Shown here: positions 6,741 to 61,464 of the stretch, one piece after another | Layout of the letters: every line of letters begins with the position of its first letter | Numbering within the stretch: position 1 is the first letter of the stretch | Assembly: GCA_030593885.1 (NCBI GenBank) | Contig: JAUVGH010000003.1 | Coordinates: 3,011-67,010, forward strand | Reading direction: 5' to 3' | Source: Methanomassiliicoccales archaeon | GTDB lineage: Archaea; Thermoplasmatota; Thermoplasmata; RBG-16-68-12; SOIM01 | Length of the DNA: 64,000 bases | Made by a program: the position numbers and the translations under genes | Notes under the pieces: model-generated | What the model was told of the DNA's origin: nothing | The model's input: the letters and a program-made list of their open reading frames with translations, nothing else | The model's database searches: none

Positions 6741-6748
6741 GTTTAAAT
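6741..6748 (+). promoter_or_regulatory. Candidate TATA box (TTTAAATA) for the L40e gene
   Basis: A consensus-like TATA box immediately after the topA stop and 28-35 bp before the ATG at 6776. Confidence 0.5.
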
Positions 6749-6775
6749 AGCCGGTTCTCAATCGGATGGTGTTGA

Positions 6776-6925
6776 TATGGCTCGATTCCCTGAGGCAGAG
6801 GCAAGGTTGCTCCACAAGAAGATCTGCATGAAATGCAGTGCCAGGAACTCCATGAGGGCCACACAGTGCAGGAAATGCGGGAGCAAGGAGCTCAGGCCCA
6901 AGGCCAAAGAGGCCAGAAGACAGTA
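6776..6925 (+). CDS. rpl40e: 50S ribosomal protein L40e
   Basis: Hand translation gives [49 protein letters not shown] (49 aa), with the CxxC...CxxC zinc ribbon typical of L40e. It falls below the 60-aa cutoff of the supplied ORF track. Confidence 0.85.
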
Positions 6926-7003
6926 GAGCCAGCGTTTTCTCCGTGATTACGAAAGATTTTTAATAGACCGAGGGGCTACCCTTTTCCACACCCATTAAAC
7001 AAT

Positions 7004-46279: not shown

Positions 46280-46408
46280 AAAAAAAAAGAGGGGGGAGGA
46301 GGTAATCGTCACTTGCGATCTCCCGTTCCCAAAAAAAAAGGGGGGGAGGAGGTAATTGTGACCTGTGAGTTCCTCTTTCAAAAAAAAGAGGAGGGGTTAA
46401 TCGTCATC
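46280..46408. repeat. Three imperfect ~33-bp direct repeats (A8-9 + G-rich GGAGGAGG + TAATCGTCAC) with 49-51-bp periodicity
   Basis: The units start at 46280, 46331 and 46380: AAAAAAAAAGAGGGGGGAGGAGGTAATCGTCAC, AAAAAAAAAGGGGGGGAGGAGGTAATTGTGAC and AAAAAAAAGAGGAGGGGTTAATCGTCATC. The third unit contains the ftsZ stop codon. Confidence 0.85.
46380..46387 (-). terminator. Oligo-T (T8 on the transcribed minus strand) candidate archaeal terminator just after ftsZ
   Basis: The T8 run begins 16 nt downstream of the ftsZ stop. Two further T9 runs (46331-46339 and 46280-46288) follow in the repeat copies. Confidence 0.5.
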
Positions 46409-47510
46409 TGACTATCGGTATTCCCATCATTTCCTCGTGTACCTCGTAGTCCACCAGCCCCACGGTCGGGCTGAGGAGGTTAGGCGACTTGACGCCGGTG
46501 ATTATGGTCATCACCTTGATCACGCCCTCGTACTCCTTGTCCACCCTGGCGCCGAATATCACGTTGGCGTTCTCGCCCAGGCAGTCGGTTATCCCCCGGA
46601 TCACCTCGTGCGCCGTTCTAAGGCTGAGGCCCGGTCCTGAAGTGAGATGTATCAGTGCTCCGTTGGCACCTGTAAAGTCAATGTCCAGCAGGGGGTTGTT
46701 CATGGCCTCCATCACCACCATGTCCGGATCGTCCGCCGCATTCTCTGCATACAGCATGGTCGATGTTCCGCCCGTGCACATTATCGCCCTCATGTCCGCG
46801 AAGTCCAGGTTTATCAGTGAGGGCATGGTAATCGTCTCCGTGAGGCCCTTGACGACCTCTGACACCAACTGGTCCATCACGCCGAAAGCCTGATTGACCG
46901 GAAGATTGGGTACGATCTCAAGGAGCTTGTTGTTGTCCAGCACGATAACGCTGTCCGCGCTGTGCCTGAGCTTCTCAAGTCCATGGTTAGCCCTTGCGAT
47001 CCTTGATCGTTCCACTGTGAAGGGGGTGCTTGCGATAGCCACGACCACGGCTCTGGACCTCCTGGCCAGCTGGGCCACATAGGGCGCCAGACCGGTTCCG
47101 GTCCCACCGCCCATTCCGACGGTGATGAACACCAGGTCTGCGCCGGAGATCATCTTCTTCAACTCGTCCTCGGACTGTTCGGCGCATTTCAGTCCAACAT
47201 CCGGCATCCCGCCGCATCCCAGACCTCTGGTGATCGATCCACCTATCAGCAACTTGTTGTCGACTCGGATCCTGTCCAGATGCGCCTTGTCAGTGTTGAT
47301 GGCGTATGTCTCCGCTCCGTGAACTCCCATCTTGGAGAGACGGTTCACACTGTTGCTACCAGCTCCGCCGCATCCCACCACGATGATCCTGGGAGAGCGA
47401 TAGCCGAACGACTCGTCATCGTTGAATTCCTTCGTTTCATGGAGCAAGTGTTCAAATCCCATATTCCATCCCTCGAAACGTGCCAGGTCGGTGCTCGGGC
47501 ACCGCTCCAT
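46404..47510 (-). CDS. ftsZ: Cell division protein FtsZ (tubulin homologue)
   Basis: [32 protein letters not shown] and NLDFADM. An alternative start is ATG 47462, preceded by GAGGGA. Confidence 0.9.
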
Positions 47511-47564
47511 GCGTGCATCCCATAGGATTGATCTCTCAATCCCCCTTCGAGGCCAACTTCCCTT

Positions 47565-47879
47565 TTATTCGAGATTCTCCATCGCCTTTGAGAGCCGTCT
47601 CCGGACGTATTCTCGCACTGCGTTGCGTATGGCGTCTTCCACCGAGACCGAATCTCCCTTCTGAACCAGTTCCTGGAGATCCACCACGTTGCCCTTCGGA
47701 AGCTCGATCGTCATCTTCTTGATGTATTCGGGTGCGAACTGAGCATCGATGAAAGTATCAATCGCGGCTCGGACAGCATCGGATAGTGTAGAGTATTCAC
47801 CGTTCTTGACTAGATGCTGGAGTGCGTCGACTGTTTCAATTGGTATTCTGACTGTAACACGCTCTGTGTCCGATGCCAT
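47565..47879 (-). CDS. cdrS: CopG/RHH-family protein with two tandem ribbon-helix-helix modules (CdrS-like, upstream of ftsZ)
   Basis: Module 1 is RVTVRIPIETVDALQHLVKNGEYSTLSDAVRAAIDTFI and module 2 is KMTIELPKGNVVDLQELVQKGDSVSVEDAIRNAVREYV. The gene is co-oriented with and immediately upstream of ftsZ. Confidence 0.7.
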   Translation of the reverse strand: MASDTERVTVRIPIETVDALQHLVKNGEYSTLSDAVRAAIDTFIDAQFAPEYIKKMTIELPKGNVVDLQELVQKGDSVSVEDAIRNAVREYVRRRLSKAMENLE

Positions 47880-47899
47880 CTCTTTCCCAGCATTGACTA

Positions 47900-47962
47900 T
47901 GTCGGACAGTTCTTTTGGTTTTGTCCGACAAATGTCGGTATAGCGTCTGACATATTTAAAGG
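47900..47962 (-). promoter_or_regulatory. cdrS promoter: TATA (minus CCTTTAAATATG, 47951-47962) plus palindromic TGTC[G/C]GACA sites
   Basis: TGTCGGACA (47900-47908) and its reverse complement TGTCCGACA (47922-47930) have centres 22 bp apart. The overlapping perfect palindrome CCGACA-AA-TGTCGG (47925-47938) lies at about the expected TSS. Confidence 0.45.
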
Positions 47963-48123
47963 TTTTGGAATGCTAGTCAGAGGTTTGAATCGCTTAGATT
48001 GATACATTGAACCATGGCAAAACTTAACAGTATTGTCCCTGATACTGGTACCGTCATCCTTAAGTGTTTCTGACCAGGATGACGGGCAGTTCTGGCATCG
48101 GACTGACGAAGGAGAGAGCTGGA

Positions 48124-51100
48124 ATGAGAAGGGCTAGCAGCAAAGCAATGAAGAGAATCGTTTCCTTGGGGGTGTCCTCCTGTCTTCTTTTCTCGACTCT
48201 TATGATCCTGGTCTCTTTTCATTCAGATCATGTCAAAGCATTGTCGCCCACTTGGGGAGATGCAATGGAAATGGGTCCTGGAGAGTGGAATAACTATTCC
48301 AACGGTGCGGGGACGGAGTGGCAGTTGGGAACGCCGGAGAACGTAGGGCCTAATTCAACCCATTCAGGAGTGAACGCATGGGGGACGAACATCGCCGAGA
48401 ACTACTCGACGGAAGCTCTGGCATATTTGGAATCACCCACATTCGATCTGGTTTTATCGACGAACACAGAACTCGTCTTCTGGCATTATTTGGAAACAGA
48501 GGACAATGTCACTAACACTTGGGACGGAGGGATCCTAGAGGTCTCGACCGACACCGGCATCACCTGGATTCAAATCGATGATCCTGTTGCGCCGAACCCA
48601 AATCCCTACTATGACGCTAACCTGGACAACGTGAGGAACAACCCATTGGGAGGGAAGAAGGCGTACTGTTACGACCGCTCCGGATGGGAGGAGGTTTCTG
48701 TCAATCTATCGCAGTTTGACGGTTCTTCTAATTTCATATTCAGGTTCGCCTTCGGAAGCGACACGACCGGTGGTTCTCCGGGATGGTATATCGATGACGT
48801 GCTCATCTCAGCGGATGCGAAGGAAGGAGTGATTGTTGAGCCGGATTACTCAAGGATCGACCTGGCTGGAACGGCTCACAAATTCAACCTGACGGTCAGA
48901 AATCTGCAGAAGATATCTGACGTGATCGACATAGTCCTCGAAGACGCCTACGGATGGCCAATGGAGCTCTACATGTGGGACGGGGTCTCGCCCCTTGCGG
49001 ATACGGGTGGTGCGCCTGGCATTCCGGACACTGGCTCCTTGTTCAAAGGGGCATCTAGAGATATAGTTCTTGAGGTCACGATACCTCCTGGGACTCCATA
49101 CGGCGTGAACAACCTGATACAAGTGAAAGGGGTGCCGTACTCGGGTCCAGCGGTCATTGATGCAGCATATGTTCATCTGTCAACGCCAACGCCTGACGTT
49201 TCCATCGTTGAATTCTCGGTTCCTGGTGTTCAGGTCTCTGGTGAAGAGGCGAATGTCACGGCTTCGATCAGGAACAACGGACGCTACAATCGGTCGTTCG
49301 ATGTAAGTCTGAAGATAAGCGGACCTGGGGAGTTGCAGTACGATCCCGTGAGAAGTATTGAGAACCTGAGTGCCGATGAGACGACAAGCGTTTACTGGAC
49401 TTTCATTCCGACGATTACGGGAGATTACGCAATAGAGGCAATGACTCTGTTGGACATAGATGTGGTTCCCGGGAACAACGTATCCTCCAGGCAGATGACG
49501 GTGATGACAAAGCTCTTTGAGGATACGATGGAGAACGGAGGCCCGGCATCCCAGGGAAAGTGGACGGCAGGGAGCCAGCCCCAGACCGCTTGGGAATTGG
49601 GAGTTCCATCCAACGTCGGACCGAGTTCGTGTCATTCAACGACCAAATGCTGGGGGACGAACCTCGACTCGGCCTACAGGAAGGCTGCGGACATCAGGTT
49701 GGAAACACCGAACATAGACCTTTCGGGATCGGACAGGGCAATCCTGAGATTCTCACATTTCTACCAGATCATGGGACCATGGATGGATGACGGTGGATTC
49801 GTTGAGGTAAGTAGTGATGGGGGTTCATCCTGGAGTTACATAGAACCAACTGGCGGTTATTCTGGGGGTGTTGATCTGAGCGCCCCCACGCCTCCTGGGC
49901 CAGGTGCTGATGCATATGCGGGCTCAAGTTCCGACTGGATGGTAGCCGAATTCGACCTCAACCCGTATTCCGGCGAGCAGATAATCATCGGTTTCCACCT
50001 CTGGACGGATCCATCCAACTACCAATCTGGATGGGCTGGATGGTACATAGACGATGTTCAAGTACTGCACATTCCAAAGGGGCCTGTTCTGATATTCACC
50101 GAGATCCAGGACAGCGGTCAGGAACTGATTGAGGTCTACAACAGCGGAAAGGTCCCGGACCACCTGACACATTACTCTATATCAACTGACGGAGGCATCA
50201 CGAACATAGGTGGTTCTTGGAGCACCGACCGGATAGACCCAGGCAAGTACGCTTTCTTCACTGCTTCGGGAGATGAGCTGAATGATGATGGCGAGATGCT
50301 CTACCTCCTGAACACTTCCTCCATCGAGATGAAGGATCAGATCGGCTATGGACAGAGAGGCCCGGTCCCCGACCCCATTTCAGAAGAGTCTTCCAGCAGA
50401 TTCTGGAACGGTAACGAATACGAGGAATACTGGACCAGATCGGCGAACACATCGTTCGGAGCACGCAATGACGTTCGACCAAGGAACGCTCAAACAGAGG
50501 TCGTGCTCAACGAGGTCCTCTTCAACCCGTCAACGCCTGGCGATGAGTTCGTAGAGATATTCTATTCCGGAAGCGGTTCGGTGAACCTGAAGAACTACAC
50601 TTTGGTCTGCGACAGCGCCCATACCATAGGTTCAGATGTCATCCTGGATGCCGCACACGATCATTACATAATGCTTCCCACGGACTACCCAGGCCTGTTC
50701 GCGGAAATGGATTCCGGGGGGGAGAATCTCTACTTGTACGATGCCACCGGTTCCTTCTTGGACATGGTGGGCTGGAGCTCCGGGAACGAAGTGGGCAAGT
50801 CGATGGCGCGAGTGCCTGAGGGTCTTGGATCCCGGGACGGGTATGATGACATCAGCTCCCAACAGGGAGGGTGGCGGTTCGGATCCGATCCCACAATGGC
50901 TCTCATCGGGCTAAGGCCAGACCAGTCGGGATACGGGGATCTGGGCGATGTCGTGAGCTATTCTCTTACGATTATGAACCAGCCAATAGATGACCTTATC
51001 ACTCTTACATACGTGACCGGACGCCCGTGGCAGATAGGTCTGTACACCGAGAACTGGTCCCCCCTTCCGGATACGAACTCCGATGGTCTACCAGATACCG

Positions 51101-53376
51101 GTCAGCTCCCTGCGTCATCATCCTACAACTTCAACGTGAAAGTGACCATACCGGCACAACCTCCGATTGGGAACGAGATGATGGCGGAGATCTACGCAAG
51201 CTCCACGGTCAACAAGGCAAGGGATTTCGCGAGCATAGTGACAAAGACAAGACCTCATCTGGAACCCATGAAGACGGCCGATCCGGAAGAGATATACCTC
51301 GAAGGGGTGGGAACCAATGAGTTCACTGAGATCACCCTGGAAGTGTTCGGGGGAGGTTACATGCTCACCGAAAGGCAGCCCCAGGACACCATCTTCGTGA
51401 TGGACAGTTCGGGAAGCATGCAAGACAGCGACCCCCTCAACCTGAGACTGGATGCATCCAAGATGTATGTTGACAACATGAGCATTCCTGACAGGGGAGC
51501 AGTGGTCGATTTCGATCATGTCGCCAATCTGGCTCCGATCGGCAATGGGGACCATCTGAGCAGTGATTATACCAGAATCAAACAGAACATAGACACAATC
51601 GATTCCAACGGGGCCACGGATGTTGGCCTTGGATTGAAGGTCGCCAATGAGGAACTCATCGCCAACGGGGATCCCACTCATCTTTGGATCGAGATCCTAA
51701 TGTCTGACGCGAACCAGCCGGACACTTACTACCCTGAGACTGCATTACAGATACAGAACGCAACTGATGCTGGCATCATCATCTTTGCAGTAGGACTAGG
51801 GGAATGGGTGAACGAGCCTTTGCTCAGAGAGATCGCGGAGCGCACGGGGGGAGAGTACTATCACGCCGAGGACCCGACGGCCCTTCAAGTGATATTCAGC
51901 CAGATAGAGATGATCATATTCGACATAGCTGGACGAGATGGAGACCTGAGCGATTCTGACCGCATGATAAGGGACGTGATACCGCCGTACATCCATCTGG
52001 AGTGGGGTTCTTTCTCGATCTATCCCGATGTCATTTACAGTACAATGGAAGGGACCTGCCTTGAATGGGAGGTCGCCAGGATCAAGGTGGGTGAGAACTG
52101 GAAGGTCTCCTACAAGGTCAGCAGTTCCCAACTGGGTTGGGTGCCGGTTGGTGTCTATCCGGATGCGAGGGTCAGCTACATCAAGTGGAACAATCATTAC
52201 GTGACCCACCCGTTCCCTGAGGTCTTGGTCCACGTCATCCTTCCGCCAACCGACCCGACTGTTATAGGGCCTCCAAAGGACCTTAGAACTTCGGTCACGG
52301 GAAACACGGACATTCGCCTGGACTGGACCCCTCCAGATGATCCTATGGTCAGCCACTACCTGATATATCGTTCGGAGGGGCAGAGGGGCTTCGATTTCAC
52401 AAACCCGATTCATGATACTTCAAACGATGTTGATCCAAGACGAACCGATTGGCTGGACGCCGGAGCAGCAGACGTCGGAGCCAAGAGGGAGTACTACTAC
52501 ACTGTAAGGGCTGTGGATAATGGGGGTTCTGTGAGCAACACCAGCAACACGGCAGGCAAGTGGACGAAAACATTCGAAGAGGGTCTGAACACCTTCTCTC
52601 TTCCACTGGAACCGTACCGCCCCCTGAATGTGAGTGAACTGGGGAACCAGATACCCAACGCCGAGTTCATCAGGAGTGTCGGGAAGGACGGGGGCTGGAA
52701 CACTCATATCGTGGGCACAAAGGGTGTGGTAACTGATGAGGAAGCACTTATCGGAAAGGGCTATGAGATATCGGTGTCCGCCCAGACCACGTACACGTTC
52801 GTGGGATTCCCGGGATCGATGATACGTTTCCATGAGGGGTTTGGGGATACCATAGCATTCAGAAGAAGCCTGGTGGCAAATGTGGAGAATTCGGACATAA
52901 GAGTCATCTGGCAGCCTCTCCCCAGTGTGTCTAAATATCATGTATACAGGTCCGCGAGCAGAGACGGCTTGTTTGAAGAGACGCTCCAACCCTTAGCCAT
53001 AGTTTCAACTTCTCTCAGTTATTATGTAGATATTGGAGTTGTCTCATCCGGAACTGAGCATTATTACTGGGTCGTCCCGGTCGATTCGGCGGGAAATGAG
53101 GGGAGCAGTACTTACAGTATCGGAGTGTGGATCGGGATCTATCAGAAAGGCTCTGACACCATCTCATCTCCATTGAAGTTGAGGGTGCAGATTTGGATCG
53201 ACGGTCTTTGCGAATTGAATGAGGATGTGGTCGGGATGGCTTACTTGATAAAGGGCGTTTGGAAGTTCCACTCAAGGGAGATGCCAGCTTCGGTCTACAA
53301 CACAGCTTTCGAGCAAGCATTGGGGTACCAAATATCGAACGAGAATGCAGTGCAATTGATCTTCATAGGTTACTAG
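48124..53376 (+). CDS. Giant secreted multidomain protein (2x MAM/beta-sandwich-like modules, 2x lamin-tail domains, vWA with MIDAS, FN3-like domains)
   Basis: ATG 48124 is preceded by AGGAGAG, and the signal/anchor is MKRIVSLGVSSCLLFSTLMILV. LTD motifs are LIFTEIQDSGQELIEVYNSG and VLNEVLFNPSTPGDEFVEIFYSG, and the vWA MIDAS is IFVMDSSGSM...GATDVG. FN3-like regions include DIRLDWTPPDDPMVSHYLIYRS. Confidence 0.75.
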   Translation: MRRASSKAMKRIVSLGVSSCLLFSTLMILVSFHSDHVKALSPTWGDAMEMGPGEWNNYSNGAGTEWQLGTPENVGPNSTHSGVNAWGTNIAENYSTEALAYLESPTFDLVLSTNTELVFWHYLETEDNVTNTWDGGILEVSTDTGITWIQIDDPVAPNPNPYYDANLDNVRNNPLGGKKAYCYDRSGWEEVSVNLSQFDGSSNFIFRFAFGSDTTGGSPGWYIDDVLISADAKEGVIVEPDYSRIDLAGTAHKFNLTVRNLQKISDVIDIVLEDAYGWPMELYMWDGVSPLADTGGAPGIPDTGSLFKGASRDIVLEVTIPPGTPYGVNNLIQVKGVPYSGPAVIDAAYVHLSTPTPDVSIVEFSVPGVQVSGEEANVTASIRNNGRYNRSFDVSLKISGPGELQYDPVRSIENLSADETTSVYWTFIPTITGDYAIEAMTLLDIDVVPGNNVSSRQMTVMTKLFEDTMENGGPASQGKWTAGSQPQTAWELGVPSNVGPSSCHSTTKCWGTNLDSAYRKAADIRLETPNIDLSGSDRAILRFSHFYQIMGPWMDDGGFVEVSSDGGSSWSYIEPTGGYSGGVDLSAPTPPGPGADAYAGSSSDWMVAEFDLNPYSGEQIIIGFHLWTDPSNYQSGWAGWYIDDVQVLHIPKGPVLIFTEIQDSGQELIEVYNSGKVPDHLTHYSISTDGGITNIGGSWSTDRIDPGKYAFFTASGDELNDDGEMLYLLNTSSIEMKDQIGYGQRGPVPDPISEESSSRFWNGNEYEEYWTRSANTSFGARNDVRPRNAQTEVVLNEVLFNPSTPGDEFVEIFYSGSGSVNLKNYTLVCDSAHTIGSDVILDAAHDHYIMLPTDYPGLFAEMDSGGENLYLYDATGSFLDMVGWSSGNEVGKSMARVPEGLGSRDGYDDISSQQGGWRFGSDPTMALIGLRPDQSGYGDLGDVVSYSLTIMNQPIDDLITLTYVTGRPWQIGLYTENWSPLPDTNSDGLPDTGQLPASSSYNFNVKVTIPAQPPIGNEMMAEIYASSTVNKARDFASIVTKTRPHLEPMKTADPEEIYLEGVGTNEFTEITLEVFGGGYMLTERQPQDTIFVMDSSGSMQDSDPLNLRLDASKMYVDNMSIPDRGAVVDFDHVANLAPIGNGDHLSSDYTRIKQNIDTIDSNGATDVGLGLKVANEELIANGDPTHLWIEILMSDANQPDTYYPETALQIQNATDAGIIIFAVGLGEWVNEPLLREIAERTGGEYYHAEDPTALQVIFSQIEMIIFDIAGRDGDLSDSDRMIRDVIPPYIHLEWGSFSIYPDVIYSTMEGTCLEWEVARIKVGENWKVSYKVSSSQLGWVPVGVYPDARVSYIKWNNHYVTHPFPEVLVHVILPPTDPTVIGPPKDLRTSVTGNTDIRLDWTPPDDPMVSHYLIYRSEGQRGFDFTNPIHDTSNDVDPRRTDWLDAGAADVGAKREYYYTVRAVDNGGSVSNTSNTAGKWTKTFEEGLNTFSLPLEPYRPLNVSELGNQIPNAEFIRSVGKDGGWNTHIVGTKGVVTDEEALIGKGYEISVSAQTTYTFVGFPGSMIRFHEGFGDTIAFRRSLVANVENSDIRVIWQPLPSVSKYHVYRSASRDGLFEETLQPLAIVSTSLSYYVDIGVVSSGTEHYYWVVPVDSAGNEGSSTYSIGVWIGIYQKGSDTISSPLKLRVQIWIDGLCELNEDVVGMAYLIKGVWKFHSREMPASVYNTAFEQALGYQISNENAVQLIFIGY

Positions 53377-54390: not shown

Positions 54391-55383
54391 TTAGATCGGC
54401 TTCCCTGATTGACCTGGCCCGGTTTCGGTCCCGAGGATCTCCTCATACATTAACCGAAAGACGTCCTCGTTCACAACGCTCAGGTCGTATCGCAGAAGCA
54501 TATTGGAGGCCTCCCGCAGCAGGAGATTCAGATCATCGATCGCACCATTGGCCACCCAAGAGTAGTTCTCATCAATCTCAACGATTCTGACACCGGCTTC
54601 CACAAGAGGCTTGCCCACAGCGAAATCCTCTGGACGGTTCTTCATCTCCTCGACAAAACGGCTGTCGCCCAATACGAAGAACTGGGCAATCATCTTGGCT
54701 ATGATAACATAGTAAGCATAACGGAAGTGCAGTTCCTTTGCCCCTACTTCAACGGACTCCATGCCCATTCCTCTGCAAAGTTCGTCAAAATTCGGATACA
54801 CATTACGGTACTCTGTGGTCCACGCCTCAAACTGGGATTCGAAATCCTCTGAGGATTCAGCGATTGATCGAAGTAGCATATAGCATATGCGATAGATGGG
54901 TGATCCCTTCCTGAAAACCTCCACCAAGTCGGCCGGAATCACTGACTTCGGCTCTCCGGGACGCATAGGGGGGACGCTTTCGAGAATCCTCTCACTGAGC
55001 TCTTGATCTGTCCAATTCCTTCCTGTCTGAAAGTTGTGGTACTCTGTGACTCCATCACTGCTGGTTAGGAAGAACCTCCACAGAACGCCGTCGGTTGCCA
55101 CACCGATATTGATGTTGTTCTTGCCTTTGGTGTGTGCTTCAATCTGGGTCCTGGCATCGTCCAATTCGCCCCTGAGTGAAATCCTGGACTCGATTACTAA
55201 GGGCTCTTCGAGCACAGTGCCAGCTCTCGCCCATCCCTCACGCAACTGGAGCTCCGTCGCCTTCCCGGGTTGAAGCTCAAGGCCGAACAAATCGTCAAAG
55301 AGGTCTATGAGCCATGCGTTTATGTCGACAAGCTGAGGGTCTTCTGAGCGGATATCGAAAATGCGCTTAACGAACTCGGCCAC
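54391..55383 (-). CDS. Restriction-enzyme N-terminal-like module (HSDR_N / type IIG-like nuclease-derived domain + helical linker) lacking any methyltransferase domain
   Basis: PLVIESR...NINIGVATDGVLWRFF resembles the (E-x-K)...TNG..W.ly core of type I/IIG N-termini. The C-terminal DVFRLMYEEILG resembles the motif that normally precedes the MTase domain, but the ORF stops 12 codons later. GTG start. Confidence 0.35.
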   Translation of the reverse strand: MAEFVKRIFDIRSEDPQLVDINAWLIDLFDDLFGLELQPGKATELQLREGWARAGTVLEEPLVIESRISLRGELDDARTQIEAHTKGKNNINIGVATDGVLWRFFLTSSDGVTEYHNFQTGRNWTDQELSERILESVPPMRPGEPKSVIPADLVEVFRKGSPIYRICYMLLRSIAESSEDFESQFEAWTTEYRNVYPNFDELCRGMGMESVEVGAKELHFRYAYYVIIAKMIAQFFVLGDSRFVEEMKNRPEDFAVGKPLVEAGVRIVEIDENYSWVANGAIDDLNLLLREASNMLLRYDLSVVNEDVFRLMYEEILGTETGPGQSGKPI

Positions 55384-55510
55384 AGGCCAGCATTCGACCG
55401 CATGATAATAAGTTTTGCTTTGTGCTCAACCGGAACAGTCAGGAGTTCACAGAAATCATTAAAGTACTACATCGATATTGATGCACTGCTTGGAGGGGCA
55501 TGGTGAACCA

Positions 55511-56395
55511 ATGGCTGTGAAGAAGAAGATAGTTCTTCTCGGTGATAGTGCCGTCGGGAAGACCAGTTTGATGCGCCGCTATGTGTTCGACCAGTTTGAG
55601 GGATCCTACGTCACGACAATCGGGAGCAAAGTGACGAGAAAGGAGATGACGATTATGAAAGATGACAGGGAGGTTGAGCTCAATCTCATTATCCACGACA
55701 TACTCGGAAGAGTGGGATACATGGCGCTACATGCGAGGACCTTTGCAGGTGCGCAGGGCGCCATTCTTGTCTCTGACCTGACTCGAAGGGAGACACTCAA
55801 AACACTGGAACTATATTGGATTCCATTGCTCTTCCAGGTGGTTGAGAATGTTCCGTTGGTTTTCACCTGTAATAAGTCAGACCTCACCGATGAGATATCG
55901 TTCAAACAAAAGGATATCAAGGACATAGCCTCAAGGTACAACGTTGGGATAGAGAATTCATTGAGCAATGGCCTCAAACCAAGTTACATGACAAGCGCCA
56001 AAACTGGCAAGAACGTGGAGAAAGCGTTTGAGAGTCTGGGCCATCTGATGATGTCGGAGAAAGCTCCAAGGGATCCCATAAAGGAACTGCACGAGAAGCT
56101 CATAGCTGAGGGCATTTACCGGCAATCCGATAGAAAGACTTTGATCGGTGCGGCGGATGCCTTGATCGTGGATTTCTGCGAGGGTCTGGATGATGATAGA
56201 GTGGCCCTCCTCTTACTCCGTCAGGAATTTACCAGGGCGGGCGTGGACGTGAGAAGCCCTTCGAAGGAAGGACTGTTGAAGGCTGTGGAGTATCTGGCAG
56301 AGGCTGAGTCCGAGTTCAAAGATGAGGGTCAGGTGCTGAAGGACAAAGAGAGAAGATTTCAGTTGGTAAAGAAAGCGAGAACGATCACTAGATGA
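55511..56395 (+). CDS. Rab/Ras-like small GTPase with ~114-aa C-terminal extension
   Basis: G1 is GDSAVGKT, switch I YVTTIG, G3 DILG, G4 NKSD and G5 TSAKTGKNVEKAF. ATG 55511 was chosen; the track ORF begins at TTG 55478. Confidence 0.8.
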   Translation: MAVKKKIVLLGDSAVGKTSLMRRYVFDQFEGSYVTTIGSKVTRKEMTIMKDDREVELNLIIHDILGRVGYMALHARTFAGAQGAILVSDLTRRETLKTLELYWIPLLFQVVENVPLVFTCNKSDLTDEISFKQKDIKDIASRYNVGIENSLSNGLKPSYMTSAKTGKNVEKAFESLGHLMMSEKAPRDPIKELHEKLIAEGIYRQSDRKTLIGAADALIVDFCEGLDDDRVALLLLRQEFTRAGVDVRSPSKEGLLKAVEYLAEAESEFKDEGQVLKDKERRFQLVKKARTITR

Positions 56396-56413: not shown

Positions 56414-59400
56414 ATGGCAGAACTGGAATTCCAACCAGAGCTCATTGGACGAGAGAGCGAATTGGAGGTGCTGGAAGGACATCTGGTGAGAGCATCTGAA
56501 GGGAAGGGAGCAACTGTCTTCATTTCTGGAGAGGCTGGAATCGGCAAGACGCGATTGATGAATGAGCTGAAGCAAATCGCAGAGACCAAGGGTTTCCGTG
56601 TGCTGTCAGGTCACAGCTTGTATGAATCCATGACACCTTACATGCCATTCCGAGAGGCTTTGATGTCGGGGGGATTAGAATACCTTTTTGCAGATAAGTC
56701 CCCGAGGGTCGAGGCAGTCTATTTGGTGACTGATGTTGGATTGCTGGTAAAAGAGGTTGTAAGGAAAGGTACTCATTTGGACGCAGACATATTCTCGTCC
56801 ACCTTGACCACTGTGGCCGACTTCGTCAAAGAATCTCTATCGGTTTTCAGGGGAGATGAGGCGCGCGATAGTCTGAACAGAATCGGGTACGGCGATTACG
56901 TCATTCTCATCGAAAGTGAAGGAGGCAAGAACCTGGTAGTTATTCTCACAGGCAGAGAGAACGAATTCCTGATAGATGATATGAGGGGAGTGCTCAAGGA
57001 AGTCGAGAGCAAGTACGGAGATGTGCTCAAAGATTGGGATGGTGATGAGGGGGGAGTGGAGAGCATAGACGATCTGCTGAAGACGCTCATGACCTCGGGG
57101 AAGTACGACGGAACATATTATGGAGAGGCGAATCCGGAGGCGAGAAGGAATCTGTTGATGGAAAACGTCACCCTGGGCCTGAGCAGACTATCCCATACGG
57201 TGCCGACGCTCTTGTGCATAGATGATCTTCAGTGGGCGGACCCCTCAACGCTTGCCTTGATGCATTATCTTGCAAGGAACACAGTGACATCTGGAGTATT
57301 CGTCCTGGGAGCATATCGACCTGAGGACCTGGTGACTAAAGGGGGGGAGGGACATCCTCTCAATGACAGGATTCGGTTGATGAGCCGAGAGGGACTGCAT
57401 GAAGGAATGGAACTGGGAAGATTGCCTTGGGAAACCATCTCCTCCTTCCTTCCGTCTCTGCTGGGCGATGTCGATTTCGATGAGGAATTTGAGCGAAGAA
57501 TTCACAAGGAAACAGAAGGAAACCCTTTGTTCATCATTGAACTGGCAAGACTGATGGTTGAAGAAGGGATCATAGCAAAGGACAACGGAACGTGGAAACT
57601 TGGGACGAGTATGGACGAGGTAAACGTGCCATCCAAGATACATGACGTAATCCTAAGGAAATTGGACAGATTGGGCACAGAGAAGAGAAGGATTCTGGAC
57701 TACGCCTCGGTCATAGGAGAAGTATTCAGGTCCGAGATACTTGCAGCATCTCTGGAACTAGAGAGAATCAGATTGCTGGAGCTATTGCGCAATCTGGAAC
57801 AGACTCACAAACTGGTTCATTCCCAGAATGAGGGATACAGATTCGACCACTCAAAGGTCAAAGAAGTGCTATATGGCAAGATTCCTGCAGAACTCAAAAG
57901 AGAATATCATTCCGTGATAGCTGACTCCATCAAATCGCTGAACAGAGATAGCCTGGATGAAGTTGTAGAGGACTTGGCATTCCATTACTACCGTGGTAGG
58001 AACAAGGAAGAGGCACTTCGTTATCTTATCAAAGCGGCAGACAAATGCAAGAAAGAGTACTCAAACGAAGAGGCGACACGATTCTACAATGAGGCTCTGG
58101 AACTGGAAGAGGATGCGCAGAAGAGATTGGAAGTATTCGAGGGTTTGGGAGACATTTACAGATTAATCGGAGACTATGAGAAGAGCGTAGAGTCCTACGA
58201 GAGCGCATTGGAATTGATCGAAGAGAAGAGAAAGAAGGCTGAGGTCAAGACCAGGATTGGGGCCGTCTACACGAGAAAGGGTGAGTATGGCAACGCAATA
58301 AAGGTCTGCACCGAGGCATGGAACTCAGTTGAAGGTGAGGATTGCGAGGAGGAGGCCTTTGCCCTCAACTACATCGGCGTCGTGCATTACGAAAGAGGAG
58401 AATACGACAGAGCCCTCAAGTCCTACGAGAAGAGCCTTGAGATAAGGGAGAAGAGGGGGGACCAGAAGGGCATTGCAGGATCCTTCAACAACATCGGCAA
58501 TGTGCATTGGAGAATGGGAGAATACGACAGGGCCCTCAAGTCCTACGAGAGGAGCCTTGAGTTGAGTGAGAAGACCGGCGACCAGGAGTTTACCGCAATT
58601 CACCTCGGGAACATTGGCGTTGTGCATTTCGATAGAGGGGAATACGATAGGGCCCTCGAGTACTACGAGAGGAGCCTTGAGATAAGGGAGGAGATCGGCG
58701 ACCAGGAGGGGATTGCACTCACCCTCAACAGCTTCGGCAATGTGCATACTGAGAGAGGAGAATACGATAGGGCCCTCGAGTACTACGAGAGGAGTCTGGG
58801 GATATCGGAGAAGATCGGCGACCAGCACAGGATTGCAAGACCCCTCAACAACGTCGGCAGTGTGCATTGGAGCATGGGAGAATACGACAGGGCCCTCGAG
58901 TACTACGAGAGGAGTCTGGAGATTAATGAGAAGATTGGCGACCAGGACGGGATTGCAACCAACCTCAACGGCATCGGCAATGTGCATTGGAGCATGGGAG
59001 AATACGACAGGGCCCTCGGGTACCACGAGAGGAGTCTGGGGATATCGGAGAAGATTGGCGACAGGGAAGGAGCCACTGAGTCATACTGTCGCATTGCAGA
59101 AGTCTATTTTGAAAAGAGAAATCTGAGAAGAGCACTGGATTTCTGCAATAGAGCATTTGACCTGTCCAGAGAGGTTGGTTTGAAGGAGAGCGAGGCAGCA
59201 TCAAGGAGAATCTTCGGAAAGATCCATAGAGAGCGAGAAAAGTGGAAGGAATCGATTGAAGAATTCGAGGAGAGCATCAGGATATTCGAGGAGATTGGAA
59301 TGAAGAAGGGGTTAGGAGACTCCCACTACGAGTTCGGTCTCATGTATAAGGACAAAGGTGATACGGGCAAAGCAAAGGAGTATCTGGACAAGGCAGCTGC

Positions 59401-59470
59401 GATATTCGAAGGGATGCACTTGGATCTGCAGTTGGATGAGGTGAGGAAAGCCCTAGATGGACTGACCTGA
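56414..59470 (+). CDS. STAND (AAA_16-type) ATPase with internal Roadblock/LC7-like insertion and C-terminal TPR array
   Basis: The N-terminus GRESELEVLEGHL, Walker A GEAGIGKT and Walker B LLCIDDLQWAD follow the AAA_16 pattern. The EGNPLFIIEL helical arm follows, then at least 9 TPR units, six of them nearly identical (GEYDRAL..Y.RSL.I.EKIGDQ). The gene starts 18 bp after the GTPase stop. Confidence 0.8.
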   Translation: MAELEFQPELIGRESELEVLEGHLVRASEGKGATVFISGEAGIGKTRLMNELKQIAETKGFRVLSGHSLYESMTPYMPFREALMSGGLEYLFADKSPRVEAVYLVTDVGLLVKEVVRKGTHLDADIFSSTLTTVADFVKESLSVFRGDEARDSLNRIGYGDYVILIESEGGKNLVVILTGRENEFLIDDMRGVLKEVESKYGDVLKDWDGDEGGVESIDDLLKTLMTSGKYDGTYYGEANPEARRNLLMENVTLGLSRLSHTVPTLLCIDDLQWADPSTLALMHYLARNTVTSGVFVLGAYRPEDLVTKGGEGHPLNDRIRLMSREGLHEGMELGRLPWETISSFLPSLLGDVDFDEEFERRIHKETEGNPLFIIELARLMVEEGIIAKDNGTWKLGTSMDEVNVPSKIHDVILRKLDRLGTEKRRILDYASVIGEVFRSEILAASLELERIRLLELLRNLEQTHKLVHSQNEGYRFDHSKVKEVLYGKIPAELKREYHSVIADSIKSLNRDSLDEVVEDLAFHYYRGRNKEEALRYLIKAADKCKKEYSNEEATRFYNEALELEEDAQKRLEVFEGLGDIYRLIGDYEKSVESYESALELIEEKRKKAEVKTRIGAVYTRKGEYGNAIKVCTEAWNSVEGEDCEEEAFALNYIGVVHYERGEYDRALKSYEKSLEIREKRGDQKGIAGSFNNIGNVHWRMGEYDRALKSYERSLELSEKTGDQEFTAIHLGNIGVVHFDRGEYDRALEYYERSLEIREEIGDQEGIALTLNSFGNVHTERGEYDRALEYYERSLGISEKIGDQHRIARPLNNVGSVHWSMGEYDRALEYYERSLEINEKIGDQDGIATNLNGIGNVHWSMGEYDRALGYHERSLGISEKIGDREGATESYCRIAEVYFEKRNLRRALDFCNRAFDLSREVGLKESEAASRRIFGKIHREREKWKESIEEFEESIRIFEEIGMKKGLGDSHYEFGLMYKDKGDTGKAKEYLDKAAAIFEGMHLDLQLDEVRKALDGLT
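58397..59116 (+). repeat. Intragenic tandem repeat, six units of exactly 120 bp (40-aa TPR units)
   Basis: GGAGAATACGACAG(G/A)GCCCTC recurs, with minor variants, at 58397, 58517, 58637, 58757, 58877 and 58997, with long stretches of nucleotide identity. Confidence 0.85.
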
Positions 59471-59552: not shown

Positions 59553-60323
59553 TCATTCGAAGCCAAGAAGACAAGCCATATCATAACCTGACTGCGTCAG
59601 GTTCACCTTCCTCCGCCTGCCCAACTTCTCAATCTCAACGTATCCCACATCCACCAGTGGTTTCAAAATGGTCTTGGTGAGTTTGACCGTCAACCTTGTC
59701 TTCTCCGCCCGAAGTGTCATCTTTGTCACTTTGGTGTCGAACCCTGGGACTCCATTCCTTCTCAGTACGTCGAAGAGCTCCTGATAGGATTGGGACTTCT
59801 GTGGTGATGATGCAAGACTCCCAAGAACGCTGGTTCCCGCCTCGGAAGGTAACGAGAGCCCGAAACTGGGAACCATGATCGGATTCCCGAGCATTCCCCT
59901 GCTCAGACCATGCTTCTTCAGACCTTTCTCGGTTCTCATGTGCTCCTCGGGTCTGACATAGTATGCGTATCCCCGATCTCTCAAGTGTGCCATGGACGCA
60001 AGCATCCCTGCAACCGCGGCCAATTTTCCAGCAGAGGAGATGTTAACGTAGACCCGGTTCCCCTTCTTGACTTCCTCTTCGACCAATCTGGTCGTTTCCC
60101 GCATGAGACCTTTGAGATCGCTCTCGGAGTCAACTTTGGTGTGGACGACTTCGACCCCTTCACCCTTCAGTTCTTCTGACACGCGATGGAAGAAATGTCG
60201 TTGCATATCATGAGCATCGGGATTGCAGAGGAGATGCGCCCTGTGGGCCTTCATAGCCCGCACTGGAAGGACAGCCCTGTCCAACTCCCAGCCGAGTGGA
60301 ATGACGTGGACTAAGCGTTCCAT
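59553..60323 (-). CDS. Csa3/CARF-like Rossmann domain + C-terminal winged-helix regulator (DUF6293/HFX_2341-like)
   Basis: HVIPLGWELDRAVLPV, RAHLLCNP and VYVNISSAGKLAAVAGMLA mirror the CARF/Csa3 N-domain strand-helix pattern. The C-terminal ILKPLVDVGYVEIEKLGRRRKVNLTQSG looks like a wHTH. Confidence 0.45.
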   Translation of the reverse strand: MERLVHVIPLGWELDRAVLPVRAMKAHRAHLLCNPDAHDMQRHFFHRVSEELKGEGVEVVHTKVDSESDLKGLMRETTRLVEEEVKKGNRVYVNISSAGKLAAVAGMLASMAHLRDRGYAYYVRPEEHMRTEKGLKKHGLSRGMLGNPIMVPSFGLSLPSEAGTSVLGSLASSPQKSQSYQELFDVLRRNGVPGFDTKVTKMTLRAEKTRLTVKLTKTILKPLVDVGYVEIEKLGRRRKVNLTQSGYDMACLLGFE

Positions 60324-60447
60324 GCAGGGTAGAATGACGCAGGATGATTAAGATGTTTTCTATGTTTACTATCATGTTTTAGCATTAGACCAGTTTCTGG
60401 TGAAGCTCCAAATAACCTCGGCTGGACTTCAATATCGGGTTGATACC

Positions 60448-61464
60448 ATGAAATTGTGGAAAGTATTCCTCAGTTTGGTTACCGTGAGCCTGCTTTTGAC
60501 TGTCTCCTTGAGCATTCCCATGAATGCCTTGGTAGTGGGTGCGGCGCCACCGGACAAGTGCGATCCCTGGCCCGAGTGCAAAGATGGCGGGGGTGGCGAG
60601 GAGCCTTCAGCAGACCCAGCTATTGCATTCACAAGGAAAAAAGGTCTCATTTCAATACTCACGGTGATGAACGCTGATGGCACAAATCGGGTCGATTTAG
60701 ATTCCGAGCGTTATCTTCGAAACCCAACGTGGTCGCCAGATGGGTCTTCTATCGCCTATCTAAAAGGCGTGCCGCACAGTCTCTACCGTATCGATGTAGC
60801 GGTGGTCAATGGTACAGTGCAGGGAAGCGAGCCAACGCTTCTGTATGAAGACATCCAAATGGACCCCGCATGGTCACCTTTGGGCGATAAGATTGCATTC
60901 ATACAGAAGACCTACGACCCCTCTTTGGGTTATGACCGTCCAAGACTAGTCCAGACGATTTCACTTGGCGACGGTTCTGTTGAAACCTTGTATACGGCAG
61001 ATGAAGGACATTTTTTGCTGGACCCGACATGGAGCCCGGACGCCACTAGGATCGCGTTTGTAGGCTGGGCACGGATACTGGATGTCGGAAGATCGTATAT
61101 CGATATCCTAACAATTGGATCGGGAGAGCCTCCTGAGAGAGTCTATGAGTATGGATCGGTTGGCATAAGGGATTTGGATTGGTCGCGTACGCCGGACAAG
61201 CTGGCGTTTCAGTTATGGCCTTCCCTCGATGGATCCGAAGACAGTGCGATCTATACTCTTGACATAACGCAGAGCGATCCGACACCGCAGTTCGTTTCCG
61301 GAGAGAATTGCCGTTATCCTTCTTGGTCGCCCGACGATACTCAGTTGGTGTTTGACCGACCCGTCAGTCAAGTAAAGATCTTTACATATGACTTTGCGAC
61401 AGGGGAGACCACGGAGCTCGGGAAAGGTCGGGACCCAGACTGGAGCAGGCACGTAAGCAGTTAG
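60448..61464 (+). CDS. Secreted TolB-like beta-propeller protein (PD40/WD40-like repeats)
   Basis: Signal MKLWKVFLSLVTVSLLLTVSLS. The repeats are PTWSPDGSSIAY, PAWSPLGDKIAF, PTWSPDATRIAF, LDWSRTPDKLAF and PSWSPDDTQLVF. Confidence 0.7.
   Translation: MKLWKVFLSLVTVSLLLTVSLSIPMNALVVGAAPPDKCDPWPECKDGGGGEEPSADPAIAFTRKKGLISILTVMNADGTNRVDLDSERYLRNPTWSPDGSSIAYLKGVPHSLYRIDVAVVNGTVQGSEPTLLYEDIQMDPAWSPLGDKIAFIQKTYDPSLGYDRPRLVQTISLGDGSVETLYTADEGHFLLDPTWSPDATRIAFVGWARILDVGRSYIDILTIGSGEPPERVYEYGSVGIRDLDWSRTPDKLAFQLWPSLDGSEDSAIYTLDITQSDPTPQFVSGENCRYPSWSPDDTQLVFDRPVSQVKIFTYDFATGETTELGKGRDPDWSRHVSS

Follow-up and report, generated by a model that had tools for sequence, protein, structure and literature searches.

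Which domain separates the two halves of the nucleotide-binding site in a signalling ATPase encoded by a Methanomassiliicoccales archaeon, and could it connect this ATPase to the small GTPase gene that lies beside it? The locus is part of a 64,000-nucleotide stretch of contig JAUVGH010000003.1 (the window, whose positions are used throughout), and the features needed to answer the question outside the inserted segment itself are as follows.

55478..56395, forward strand: Rab-like small GTPase gene, longest open reading frame 305 aa (Pfam, NCBIfam, motif alignment)
56414..59470, forward strand: STAND-class (AAA_16) ATPase with a presumed TPR sensor array, 1018 aa (open reading frame list, Pfam)
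56528..56551, forward strand: Walker A/P-loop, GEAGIGKT, aa 39-46, read from the sequence
57209..57226, forward strand: Walker B, LLCIDD, aa 266-271, with a QWAD motif directly after it
57317..57319, forward strand: codon of Arg302, a conserved residue at the end of strand E295-301 (AlphaFold2)
57341..58045, forward strand: helical/winged-helix arm, STAND module, aa ~310-544 (AlphaFold2, alignment, NCBIfam)
58046..59443, forward strand: TPR repeat array, aa ~545-1010, with matches to TPR_12 (8 stretches), TPR_1, TPR_2 and TPR_MalT (Pfam)

The open reading frame at 56414-59470 encodes a MalT/AfsR-like STAND ATPase, made up of a P-loop core, a helical arm and a TPR sensor. Using Pfam, we observe an AAA_16 score of 82.5 bits (cut-off 32.6) as well as a TPR_12 match of 3.6e-88. 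Alignment with relatives that lack the insert demonstrated that G39, E40, G42, G44 and K45 of Walker A are invariant, as are D271 and W274 at and just after Walker B, where AlphaFold2 places the Walker B strand (E265-270). R302, which we infer to be the sensor-1-like arginine of AAA_16, shows no variation in an alignment of 20 sequences that includes insert-less relatives, and the invariance of Walker A, Walker B and R302 supports ATPase competence. The STAND arm, modelled up to aa 420 as helices and a two-strand hairpin, is kept in relatives with and without the insert and is aligned by NCBIfam to the STAND region of TOMM kinase/cyclase proteins, and the TPR array is presumed to be a sensor or interaction domain. 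With a profile match above the cut-off, intact Walker A and Walker B motifs, a helical arm and a repeat sensor all present, the protein belongs with the AAA_16/STAND proteins carrying TPRs; it shares its AAA_16 core, helical arm and C-terminal TPR array with MalT, AfsR and PH0952-type STANDs, and it matches the TPR_MalT, AfsR and TOMM kinase/cyclase models, with a weak match to PH0952 (6MFV).

In MalT, AfsR and PH0952-type proteins the nucleotide-binding domain is unbroken and the two Walker motifs are ~112 residues apart. The window protein has 225 aa between the Walker A lysine and the Walker B aspartate, and lacks the contiguous domain, with its spacing of ~110 aa, that is typical of AAA_16. 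This distance has a median of 225 in insert-bearing homologues (n = 30) and of 112 in AAA_16 relatives without the insert that the same search recovered (n = 62). The insert also splits the AAA_16 profile, such that aa 9-292 correspond to profile positions 1-161 of 167 (Pfam), and in the full protein the better of two AAA_16 stretches stops at aa 101, profile position 92. When aligned with the insert-less relatives, the extra residues form a clean block of ~110-120 residues; the nucleotide-binding domain is broken by a domain of ~113 residues, located between the helix that follows strand 2 and the helix that precedes the Walker B strand. This block is 28-59% identical among homologues, and its conservation, together with the thousands of sequences that its profile recovers, argues against a chance extension. 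The original prediction, which had placed an inserted domain at 56702-57034, gave correct coordinates for this segment and for both Walker motifs and quoted the right residues, all four of its peptides falling within aa 97-207; the long spacing that it noted is now measured, and the alignment with AAA_16 relatives that it proposed yields the block described above. An insertion inside a P-loop core, which it called unusual, is not without precedent. RuvBL1/RuvBL2 (Rvb1/2), for example, carry an entire extra domain, domain II, in the interval from Walker A to Walker B, and these proteins are the best whole-chain Foldseek matches of our model (E about 1e-9, TM-scores of only ~0.37). They are the only proteins among the best 50 PDB matches of the whole aa 1-420 model, a result that reflects the AAA+ core alone; the inserted fold of RuvBL1/2 is the OB-like domain II, and the proteins belong to another ATPase clade with another biology.

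The inserted module was delineated as follows.

56690..57034, forward strand: putative Roadblock-type alpha/beta insert, aa 93-207 (AlphaFold2, alignment, profile matches)
56705-56731 and 56744-56761, forward strand: predicted insert strands 1 and 2, E98-106 and E111-116 (AlphaFold2)
56783-56845, forward strand: predicted first helix of the insert, H124-144 (AlphaFold2)
56876-56890, 56897-56920 and 56927-56950, forward strand: predicted insert strands 3-5, E155-159, E162-169 and E172-179 (AlphaFold2)
56963-57031, forward strand: predicted last helix of the insert, H184-206 (AlphaFold2)
57035..57133, forward strand: W-D-G-D motif and short linker helices leading back to the ATPase core, part of the inserted module

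These elements come from an AlphaFold2 model of aa 1-420 built with a 29-sequence alignment (mean pLDDT 81, pTM 0.76), a model built from the single sequence (pLDDT 35) having been discarded. The five strands are predicted at pLDDT ~80-87, and the lengths of the elements resemble those of MglB. Downstream of the last helix, the W-D-G-D motif occupies aa 208-211 and an SGKYDG motif aa 228-233, within the linker helices (212-215, 218-227 and 236-239); W208 is near-invariant in the family, R117, E184 and D189 are conserved too, and this tryptophan and the glycine are the top conserved positions across all architectures in which the module occurs.

Our searches with the window insert itself did not assign it directly to Roadblock/LC7 (PF03259, COG2018): it has no Pfam match, with Robl_LC7 absent at E<=1, no significant match to any solved Roadblock chain among PDB sequences, and nothing significant for the window sequence itself when the insert and its 22- and 44-member profiles were compared with Pfam, NCBIfam and PDB sequences. 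A homologue, P0170, provides the link. Its aa 37-171 are 45% identical to the window insert and fall in the same profile family (E 1.3e-38), and this protein matches Robl_LC7 at E 6.6e-6 with 26.2 bits, above the curated Pfam cut-off of 23, in a match that begins at profile position 10 and leaves the Roadblock N-terminal helix unmatched. Homology to a profile-matching sequence thus places the window insert in Roadblock/LC7 transitively. In the three sets of family members that we scanned, Robl_LC7 matches, mostly weak, were found in 2 of 22, 3 of 44 and 6 of 57 sequences, and this model ranked first among Pfam matches in one set, was tied with CTD8 in another and stood behind CTD8 in the third. 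In addition, IMG labels three fragments (P0011, P0029 and P0031) as “Roadblock/LC7/MglB family” (COG2018), and a profile search of the PDB found a dynein roadblock chain at E 0.7. An hhalign comparison with Myxococcus xanthus MglB (sequence checked against PDB 6H5B), akin to the HHpred search that had been proposed, aligned the insert colinearly over 109 columns at E 0.012, covering MglB strands 1-2, helix 2, strands 3-5 and the C-terminal helix. The local comparison gave E 0.0022 over 32 columns, vs 0.64 for a reversed control; this profile-profile test was underpowered, since the search for MglB homologues returned only sequences at least 76% identical. Sequences of human DYNLRB1 and LAMTOR2/3 were used only in this exploratory local comparison. 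Transitively through P0170, and independently through the IMG names, the sequence evidence supports the Roadblock reading of the original prediction and identification of the insert as a divergent Roadblock/LC7-type domain.

The start codon of the ATPase open reading frame lies 18 nt past the stop codon of the GTPase gene, on the same strand, a neighbour that the original prediction did not mention. This gene probably spans 55511-56395 and encodes 294 aa, since a 100% identical database protein, P0380, begins at Met12 of the longest frame. It encodes a G domain followed by a conserved helical C-terminal extension of ~110 aa, and it matches Ras (8.3e-27) and Roc (4.8e-20) in Pfam and small_GTP in NCBIfam; its nearest solved structure is the Thorarchaeota Rab 7EZB (E 4.7e-19), with Rab7 next. 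The motifs GDSAVGKT (G1), DILG-R (G3), NKSD and SAK were identified by aligning the protein with H-Ras and four homologues; it has Arg at the position of Ras Q61 and Ser at that of G12. None of the seven GTPases compared retains the G3 glutamine (Arg in six, Ser in one), and a GTPase that lacks this catalytic residue probably needs a partner for GTP hydrolysis. Homologues of this GTPase adjoin an insert-bearing ATPase at 6 of ~14 loci with usable flanks, i.e., at this locus and at L010, L012, L016 (two copies), L029 and L031; at these five other loci the gene order is opposite to that in the window, and the GTPases match at E 1e-94 to 1e-132 and share the C-terminal extension. By our own estimate, adjacency at this frequency and in two gene orders greatly exceeds what chance would give for a family with a few copies per genome. 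This recurrence lends support to the GTPase-binding platform that the original prediction had proposed, in which the insert would sit next to the ATP site.

The presence of an embedded Roadblock-type domain and of an adjoining GTPase gene, here and at the five related loci, suggests an undescribed ATP/GTP double switch. Reasoning by analogy with known Roadblock systems, we consider it rather likely that the embedded domain docks the adjoining GTPase and couples ATP-driven STAND assembly to the state of the GTPase. Roadblock domains work as obligate dimers (MglB, LC7 and LAMTOR). The insert would serve as the docking platform, as in MglB, the actinobacterial conservon and Ragulator, and by analogy with domain II of RuvBL it would stick out on the outer side of the ATPase ring. 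Ligand binding to the TPR array would trigger ATP-driven oligomerisation of the STAND protein and bring the Roadblock inserts together, and the gathered inserts would switch on GTPase binding or a GAP-like activity; alternatively, a GTP-bound GTPase on the insert may license assembly of the ATPase. In either direction, the STAND protein and the GTPase would form a coupled ATP/GTP switch.

Comparison with known systems shows where this arrangement would be new. We know of no MalT, AfsR or PH0952-type STAND with an embedded Roadblock domain or a dedicated GTPase partner. As with MglA/MglB of Myxococcus and Thermus, a protein with a Roadblock-type domain is genetically paired with a small Ras-superfamily GTPase; MglB, however, is a stand-alone protein of ~160 aa, whereas the insert sits within a 1018-aa ATPase, and its neighbour is not an MglA-type GTPase but a Rab-like one whose G3 motif reads D-x-x-G and which carries the arginine noted above. 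With a Rab-like GTPase and an embedded domain, the insert does not class as an MglB, the GAP of MglA, and in the survey of Wuichet and Sogaard-Andersen none of 121 Rup-type GTPases was coupled to MglB (PMC4316618). The actinobacterial conservon consists of the CvnA sensor kinase, the CvnB Roadblock protein, CvnC and the CvnD GTPase, and likewise encodes a sensor, a Roadblock protein and a small GTPase as one signalling unit (PMC4316618, PMC13343842). Here, by contrast, the sensor is a STAND ATPase with TPRs that contains the putative Roadblock domain within its own chain, two genes take the place of four, a histidine kinase is lacking, and the hosts are archaea. Roadblock or longin platforms also dock GTPases in Ragulator/LAMTOR-Rag and in the Asgard archaea, where GTPases are fused to Roadblock or longin domains (PMC10933270); in those systems the Roadblock domain is stand-alone or fused to the GTPase, whereas here it lies in a P-loop ATPase and the GTPase has a separate gene.

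It is also conceivable, if unlikely, that the insert is of the Roadblock type and mainly dimerises or scaffolds the STAND protein, or binds a different partner, for instance the large surface proteins in which this domain is also found, with the GTPase an occasional passenger. The obligate dimerisation of Roadblock domains fits this explanation, and no GTPase adjoins the ATPase at roughly half of the loci whose flanks could be used (L001, L002, L006/7, L014, L024, L026 and L027/28); the GTPase family also stands alone, at L033 and L035. In addition, the domain occurs outside ATPases, in tandem pairs and in giant CARDB/DUF5915 proteins, with no obvious GTPase, and at L029 a giant protein with one copy of the domain is encoded directly upstream of the GTPase-STAND pair. 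Against a passenger role, it is a single GTPase family that recurs beside the insert-bearing ATPases in both gene orders, and every known Roadblock system has an NTPase partner (PMC4316618).

Less probable again is an assignment of the insert to the longin-like or other profilin-like alpha/beta domains; it would then have a similar function (a GTPase platform or GEF-like module) and belong to another family. The order strand-strand-helix-strand-strand-strand-helix, which the original prediction had read as a Roadblock signature, is reproduced over aa 98-206 by the alignment-based AlphaFold2 model, but the order alone does not separate Roadblock from longin: it fits the longin domain as well as the Roadblock core, and without an N-terminal helix, which is not clearly inside the insert, it is the longin order. 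Sub-threshold matches of the same kind were seen to AP-4 sigma (E 0.19) and AP-1 sigma (E 0.22-0.65) among PDB sequences and to Sybindin (0.1) and Fuz_longin_1 (0.0096-0.19) in Pfam. The sole match above a curated threshold, however, is that of P0170 to Robl_LC7, and matches to this model are stronger and commoner than longin ones in all three sets; the helix at aa 77-92, directly before the insert, could act as Roadblock helix 1, and the COG2018 assignment by IMG points the same way.

That the protein is an anti-virus STAND sensor related to Avs or BREX, in which the insert would be an effector or sensor module peculiar to the lineage and with no part in GTPase signalling, is very improbable. 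Weak Pfam matches to BrxC_BrxD, NCBI names such as “BREX system ATP-binding domain-containing protein”, a CARF-wHTH gene next door and the many paralogues per genome all fit a role in defence. The BrxC_BrxD match, however, spans the P-loop alone (aa 11-63), and PADLOC matches essentially the TPR region only, with a negligible SngB match in the core (E 0.0051, aa 11-64) and none in the insert or the GTPase; no further defence genes were found in the neighbourhoods inspected, and we rejected an Avs or BREX BrxC-BrxD identity. The all-helical lid that the original prediction had set against its own reading, i.e., an extended subdomain of AAA_16 with no separate domain, is scarcely credible, since although insert-less relatives have a variable helical stretch here and P0045 and P0046 are intermediate in length, it is rejected by the five predicted strands, by the mobility of the block, which also occurs outside ATPases, and by the Roadblock match of P0170.

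Returning to the embedded Roadblock domain as a GTPase platform, such platforms, of the Roadblock or longin type, are ancient partners of small GTPases, with MglB in bacteria and Ragulator, TRAPP and longin GEFs and GAPs in eukaryotes, and one question, sharpest for the archaeal lineages close to the root of eukaryotes, is how they came to be connected to sensors upstream. In the protein described here, such a platform appears to form part of a STAND ATPase that senses signals, and the gene of a dedicated Rab-like GTPase lies beside it. Domains inserted between the two Walker motifs are known already, and a literature search, to which subscription papers were largely closed, found no description of a Roadblock domain inside a STAND or AAA_16 protein. 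If the coupling is real, this pair would be a compact, experimentally tractable case in which an ATP switch governs a GTP switch or is governed by it, and Roadblock coupling would reach the Rab-like (Rup) branch, where the 2014 survey had none (PMC4316618). More tentatively, the pair may represent an archaeal two-gene switch, present in Thermoplasmatota and Asgard archaea, in which a Rab-like GTPase lacking the glutamine either controls a STAND protein or is controlled by it, via the Roadblock domain built into the nucleotide-binding domain of the STAND protein, with ATP-driven oligomerisation and the GTPase cycle mechanically coupled, and with the inserted module belonging to a subfamily of more than 5000 representatives that is also carried on giant surface-associated proteins. 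If true, this would hint at a wider GTPase-linked cell-surface or polarity network in archaea related to the eukaryotic ancestor.

The insert profile identified 5186 cluster representatives at E<=1e-3; at the stricter threshold of E<=1e-10 it identified 3104. This large Roadblock-like subfamily carries no Pfam annotation and is missed by current domain libraries, so that thousands of proteins are named only “AAA family ATPase” or “BREX ATP-binding domain protein”. The insert-bearing family is present in Thermoplasmatota and in Asgard archaea, including Heimdall-, Hermod- and Hodarchaeales, and a scan of genome contigs with the single insert found three distant Asgard loci only. Weak matches to CTD8, the C-terminal domain of Lamassu LmuA, were also observed in members of the insert family, and in two of the three sets scanned they were at least as frequent as those to Robl_LC7.

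The ORF under study encodes an AAA_16/STAND ATPase, in which we located the following features.

56414..59470, + strand, STAND ATPase gene, 1018 aa, with an N-terminal Pfam AAA_16 domain and a long TPR array (TPR_12, E 3.6e-88)
56528-56551, + strand, Walker A, GEAGIGKT, aa 39-46
56702-57034, aa 97-207, segment for which a Roadblock/LC7 (MglB-like) fold had been proposed
57209-57226, + strand, Walker B, LLCIDD, aa 266-271

Both Walker motifs lie where the original prediction had placed them, and all the peptides that it quoted are found within aa 97-207. The only ORF on the opposite strand over the insert region (64 aa, 56896-57090, - strand) is without supporting evidence. In a scan restricted to aa 1-300, the AAA_16 match spans aa 9-292 and corresponds to profile positions 1-161 of 167; in the full-length protein it appears as two stretches, the best-scoring of which pairs aa 9-101 with profile positions 1-92. 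We measured the Lys (Walker A) to Asp (Walker B) spacing for every homologue-search match with both motifs identifiable: it is 225 aa in the window ATPase and has a median of 225 (range 206-288) in 30 insert-bearing proteins vs a median of 112 in 62 AAA_16 relatives lacking the insert, bearing out the claim of abnormally long spacing. Our 20-sequence alignment with insert-less relatives, whose flanks are 30-43% identical, demonstrated a clean extra block of ~110-120 residues, bounded at ~aa 86 and 235, and residues G39, E40, G42, G44, K45, D271, W274 and R302 are invariant in this alignment. Since the catalytic residues are invariant despite the extra block, the ATPase core looks, from its sequence, to be functional and simply interrupted.

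An insertion into a P-loop core had been considered unusual; the insertion itself is confirmed, but its site has precedents. For example, RuvBL1/2, which are AAA+ ATPases, carry a domain between Walker A and Walker B, as does the window ATPase. A Foldseek search of the PDB with the whole model returned RuvBL1/2 chains only among the best 50 matches listed (E ~1e-9, TM ~0.37). These proteins offer a helpful parallel for where the insertion sits and are uninformative on the fold of the insert.

The model used here is an AlphaFold2 prediction from a 29-sequence alignment (pLDDT 81, pTM 0.76); prediction from the single sequence gave a pLDDT of 35, too low for use. Before the insert, it contains a core strand (33-38), the P-loop helix (45-58), a strand (62-67) and helices at 77-85 and 89-92; the insert is predicted to form strands 98-106 and 111-116, helix 124-144, strands 155-159, 162-169 and 172-179, and helix 184-206; the stretch to 262 then holds short helices, and residues 265-270 form the Walker B strand. 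Block pLDDT is ~78-87 for the insert strands and last helix, and model confidence is low at the end of the first insert helix (aa 133-153). The model thus matches the strand-strand-helix-strand-strand-strand-helix order read earlier from the sequence, with element lengths that resemble those of MglB. A Roadblock domain runs helix-strand-strand-helix-strand-strand-strand, to which a C-terminal helix is often added, and a longin domain runs strand-strand-helix-strand-strand-strand-helix-helix; the modelled order by itself does not discriminate between them.

The window insert alone has no match in Pfam, NCBIfam or PDB sequences. The family around it is large: with a 22-sequence insert profile we recovered 5186 cluster representatives at E<=1e-3, of which 3104 remain at the stricter E<=1e-10. 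Scanning insert-family members singly against Pfam, we identified matches to the Roadblock family Robl_LC7 in 2 of 22 members of alignment A2 (best E 0.083), 3 of 44 in A4 (best E 6.6e-6) and 6 of 57 in A7 (best E 1.1e-3). Robl_LC7 is the commonest Pfam match in A4, ties with CTD8 in A7 and comes behind CTD8 in A2. The best A4 match is a database protein, P0170, whose aa 37-171 share 45% identity with the window insert and which scores 26.2 bits against Robl_LC7, vs a curated cut-off of 23, over profile positions 10-83 of 91. In addition, hhalign of the insert profile against Myxococcus xanthus MglB (sequence identical to PDB 6H5B) gave an E of 0.012 over 109 colinear columns, in the order strands 1-2, helix, strands 3-5 and C-terminal helix. 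In a local hhalign run, 201 segments of the family matched a small alignment of Roadblock sequences, human DYNLRB1 and LAMTOR2/3 among them, at an E of 0.0022, with a reversed control at 0.64. IMG names the fragmentary homologues P0011, P0029 and P0031 'predicted regulator of Ras-like GTPase activity (Roadblock/LC7/MglB family)', an automatic COG label which shows that the pipeline had already picked up the Roadblock similarity.

Weak matches also occur to dynein roadblock chain (E 0.7), AP-1 sigma (0.22-0.65) and AP-4 sigma (0.19) in PDB profile searches, and to the longin-type Pfam families Fuz_longin_1 (down to 0.0096) and Sybindin (0.1) in family members; taken together, they point to the same structural neighbourhood. 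The longin-type matches and the element order would suit a longin-like insert, which we regard as less likely than a Roadblock domain, the latter being supported transitively by P0170 above the Robl_LC7 cut-off, the hhalign match to MglB and the IMG names. A mere helical lid is contradicted by the AlphaFold2 strands, the insert-family profile search and the P0170 score. We conclude from this transitive evidence that the insert probably belongs to the Roadblock superfamily as a divergent member, as first proposed, and consider it very likely that a Roadblock-type domain has been inserted in the ATPase core. As a separate observation, CTD8, a C-terminal domain of Lamassu/ABC-3C LmuA effectors, matches 3 of 22 members of A2 and 6 of 57 of A7 (best E 2.3e-4), and is about as common as Robl_LC7 in these two sets.

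A gene that the original prediction did not mention ends 18 nt upstream of the ATPase start, on the same strand.

55478..56395 (probably 55511-56395), + strand, small GTPase gene (Pfam Ras 8.3e-27, Roc 4.8e-20)

Translation probably begins at Met12 (55511), since P0380, a database protein of 294 aa, is 100% identical. The closest solved relatives are a Thorarchaeota Rab (7EZB, E 4.7e-19) and Rab7, and we therefore class this protein, by sequence relationship, as Rab-like ('Rup'-type) and not MglA-type. It retains intact G1 (GDSAVGKT), switch I Thr, NKSD and SAK motifs, with Ser at the Ras Gly12 position and Arg at the catalytic Gln61 position, and the G domain is followed by a conserved helical extension of ~110 residues without a Pfam match. 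There is also an 11-residue insertion before G5.

Homologous loci were gathered from exact-protein look-ups and from a single metagenome scan, and every reading frame in them was then searched, using the window GTPase and the insert profile as queries. Full-length GTPase homologues (E 1e-94 to 1e-132, C-terminal extension included) are immediate same-strand neighbours of an insert-bearing STAND gene in L010, L012, L016, L029 (next to P0017, gap 60 nt) and L031 (next to P0015, gap 24 nt); the GTPase is downstream in all five and upstream in the window. The Gln after D-x-x-G is absent in 7 of 7 GTPases (Arg in 6, Ser in 1). No GTPase was found at L001, L002, L006/7, L014, L024, L026 or L027/28, all with adequate flanks, nor beside the closest sampled insert-less relative (L036, n = 1), and GTPase paralogues also occur alone (L033 and L035). 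The pairing, present in 6 of ~14 usable loci and in two gene orders, is recurrent but facultative, and by our own estimate far exceeds chance for a family with few copies per genome.

These analyses show that an intact STAND ATPase is interrupted, after strand 2 and before the Walker B strand, by a module that is probably of Roadblock type, and that an adjacent gene encodes a dedicated Rab-like GTPase lacking the catalytic Gln. By analogy with MglB-MglA, conservon CvnB-CvnD and Ragulator-Rag, the embedded Roadblock may be a docking platform for the neighbouring GTPase. Since Roadblock domains act as dimers, and ATP binding drives STAND ATPases into oligomers once ligand engages the repeat sensor, assembly would pair the inserts, and could make or abolish a surface competent for GTPase binding or GAP-like action. 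In reverse, GTP-bound GTPase on the insert might license ATPase assembly. By likeness to RuvBL domain II, the insert would project from the ring periphery. We lean slightly towards the insert working through the neighbouring GTPase; the main rival, that it serves dimerisation or another partner, is favoured by the loci with no GTPase and disfavoured by the recurrent pairing. A second rival, that the ATPase is a defence STAND, finds no support in PADLOC for the core, the insert or the GTPase. Roadblock-GTPase pairs and STAND-TPR ATPases are each already well known. In the part of the literature covered, we found no description of an AAA_16/STAND core that contains a Roadblock domain and has a Rab-like partner, and a 2014 survey found Rup-type GTPases coupled to MglB in 0 of 121 (PMC4316618).

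The remaining neighbourhood contains the following genes.

46404-47510, - strand, FtsZ
48064-53376, + strand, LTD/CARDB/MAM/VWA protein, 1770 aa
between the 1770-aa protein and the 330-aa gene, GNAT acetyltransferase
54391-55383, - strand, 330-aa ORF, divergent from the GTPase gene
59553-60323, - strand, CARF-like/HFX_2341_N and winged-helix regulator (PADLOC CARF3 1.3e-56; Pfam HFX_2341_N 2.5e-30)
60400-61464, + strand, PD40/TolB-like beta-propeller with an N-terminal hydrophobic segment, downstream of the ATPase

The 330-aa ORF has no match in Pfam, NCBIfam or PADLOC, and the matching Logan contig (L032) has it annotated as a gene. The CARF regulator lies immediately downstream of the ATPase on the opposite strand, and L006/L007 likewise have a PD40-type gene (4668-5618), directly before the homologous ATPase. 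Window positions 46404-53376 show partial synteny with 813-8017 of L002, from a Methanomassiliicoccales genome: both have FtsZ, a giant surface protein with an LTD domain and the insert-bearing ATPase near one another, and in L002, where the giant is LTD/PKD, the three stand in a row.

The insert domain is a mobile module not covered by Pfam, and conservation in it is highest at a W-x-G(D) motif that follows the last helix. Proteins of ~570 aa without a Pfam match contain it in tandem pairs, proteins of 1300-2400 aa have two to three copies (the two that were scanned, P0121 and P0161, also contain CARDB and DUF5915), and Asgard proteins of ~745 aa have one copy at the C terminus (other-architecture examples are P0143, P0162, P0169, P0177, P0181 and P0235, with P0121 and P0161, and L003-L005 around 6084-8429). 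By homologue source names, the hosts are Thermoplasmata, Methanomassiliicoccales and Asgard Heimdall-, Hermod- and Hodarchaeales. In L029 (3-4805, 4947-7969), a DUF7948/SBBP/Fn3 protein of >1865 aa with one copy of the domain at aa 1183-1305 lies directly upstream of the STAND-GTPase pair, giving three consecutive genes linked to the family. Local duplications are seen as two tandem GTPase paralogues after the insert-bearing ATPase in L016 (3307-5216) and as tandem insert-bearing ATPase paralogues in L006 (5899-9599) and L024 (4616-10883), and the complete Thermoplasmata genome CP070672.1 contains at least three paralogues (P0002, P0003 and P0006).
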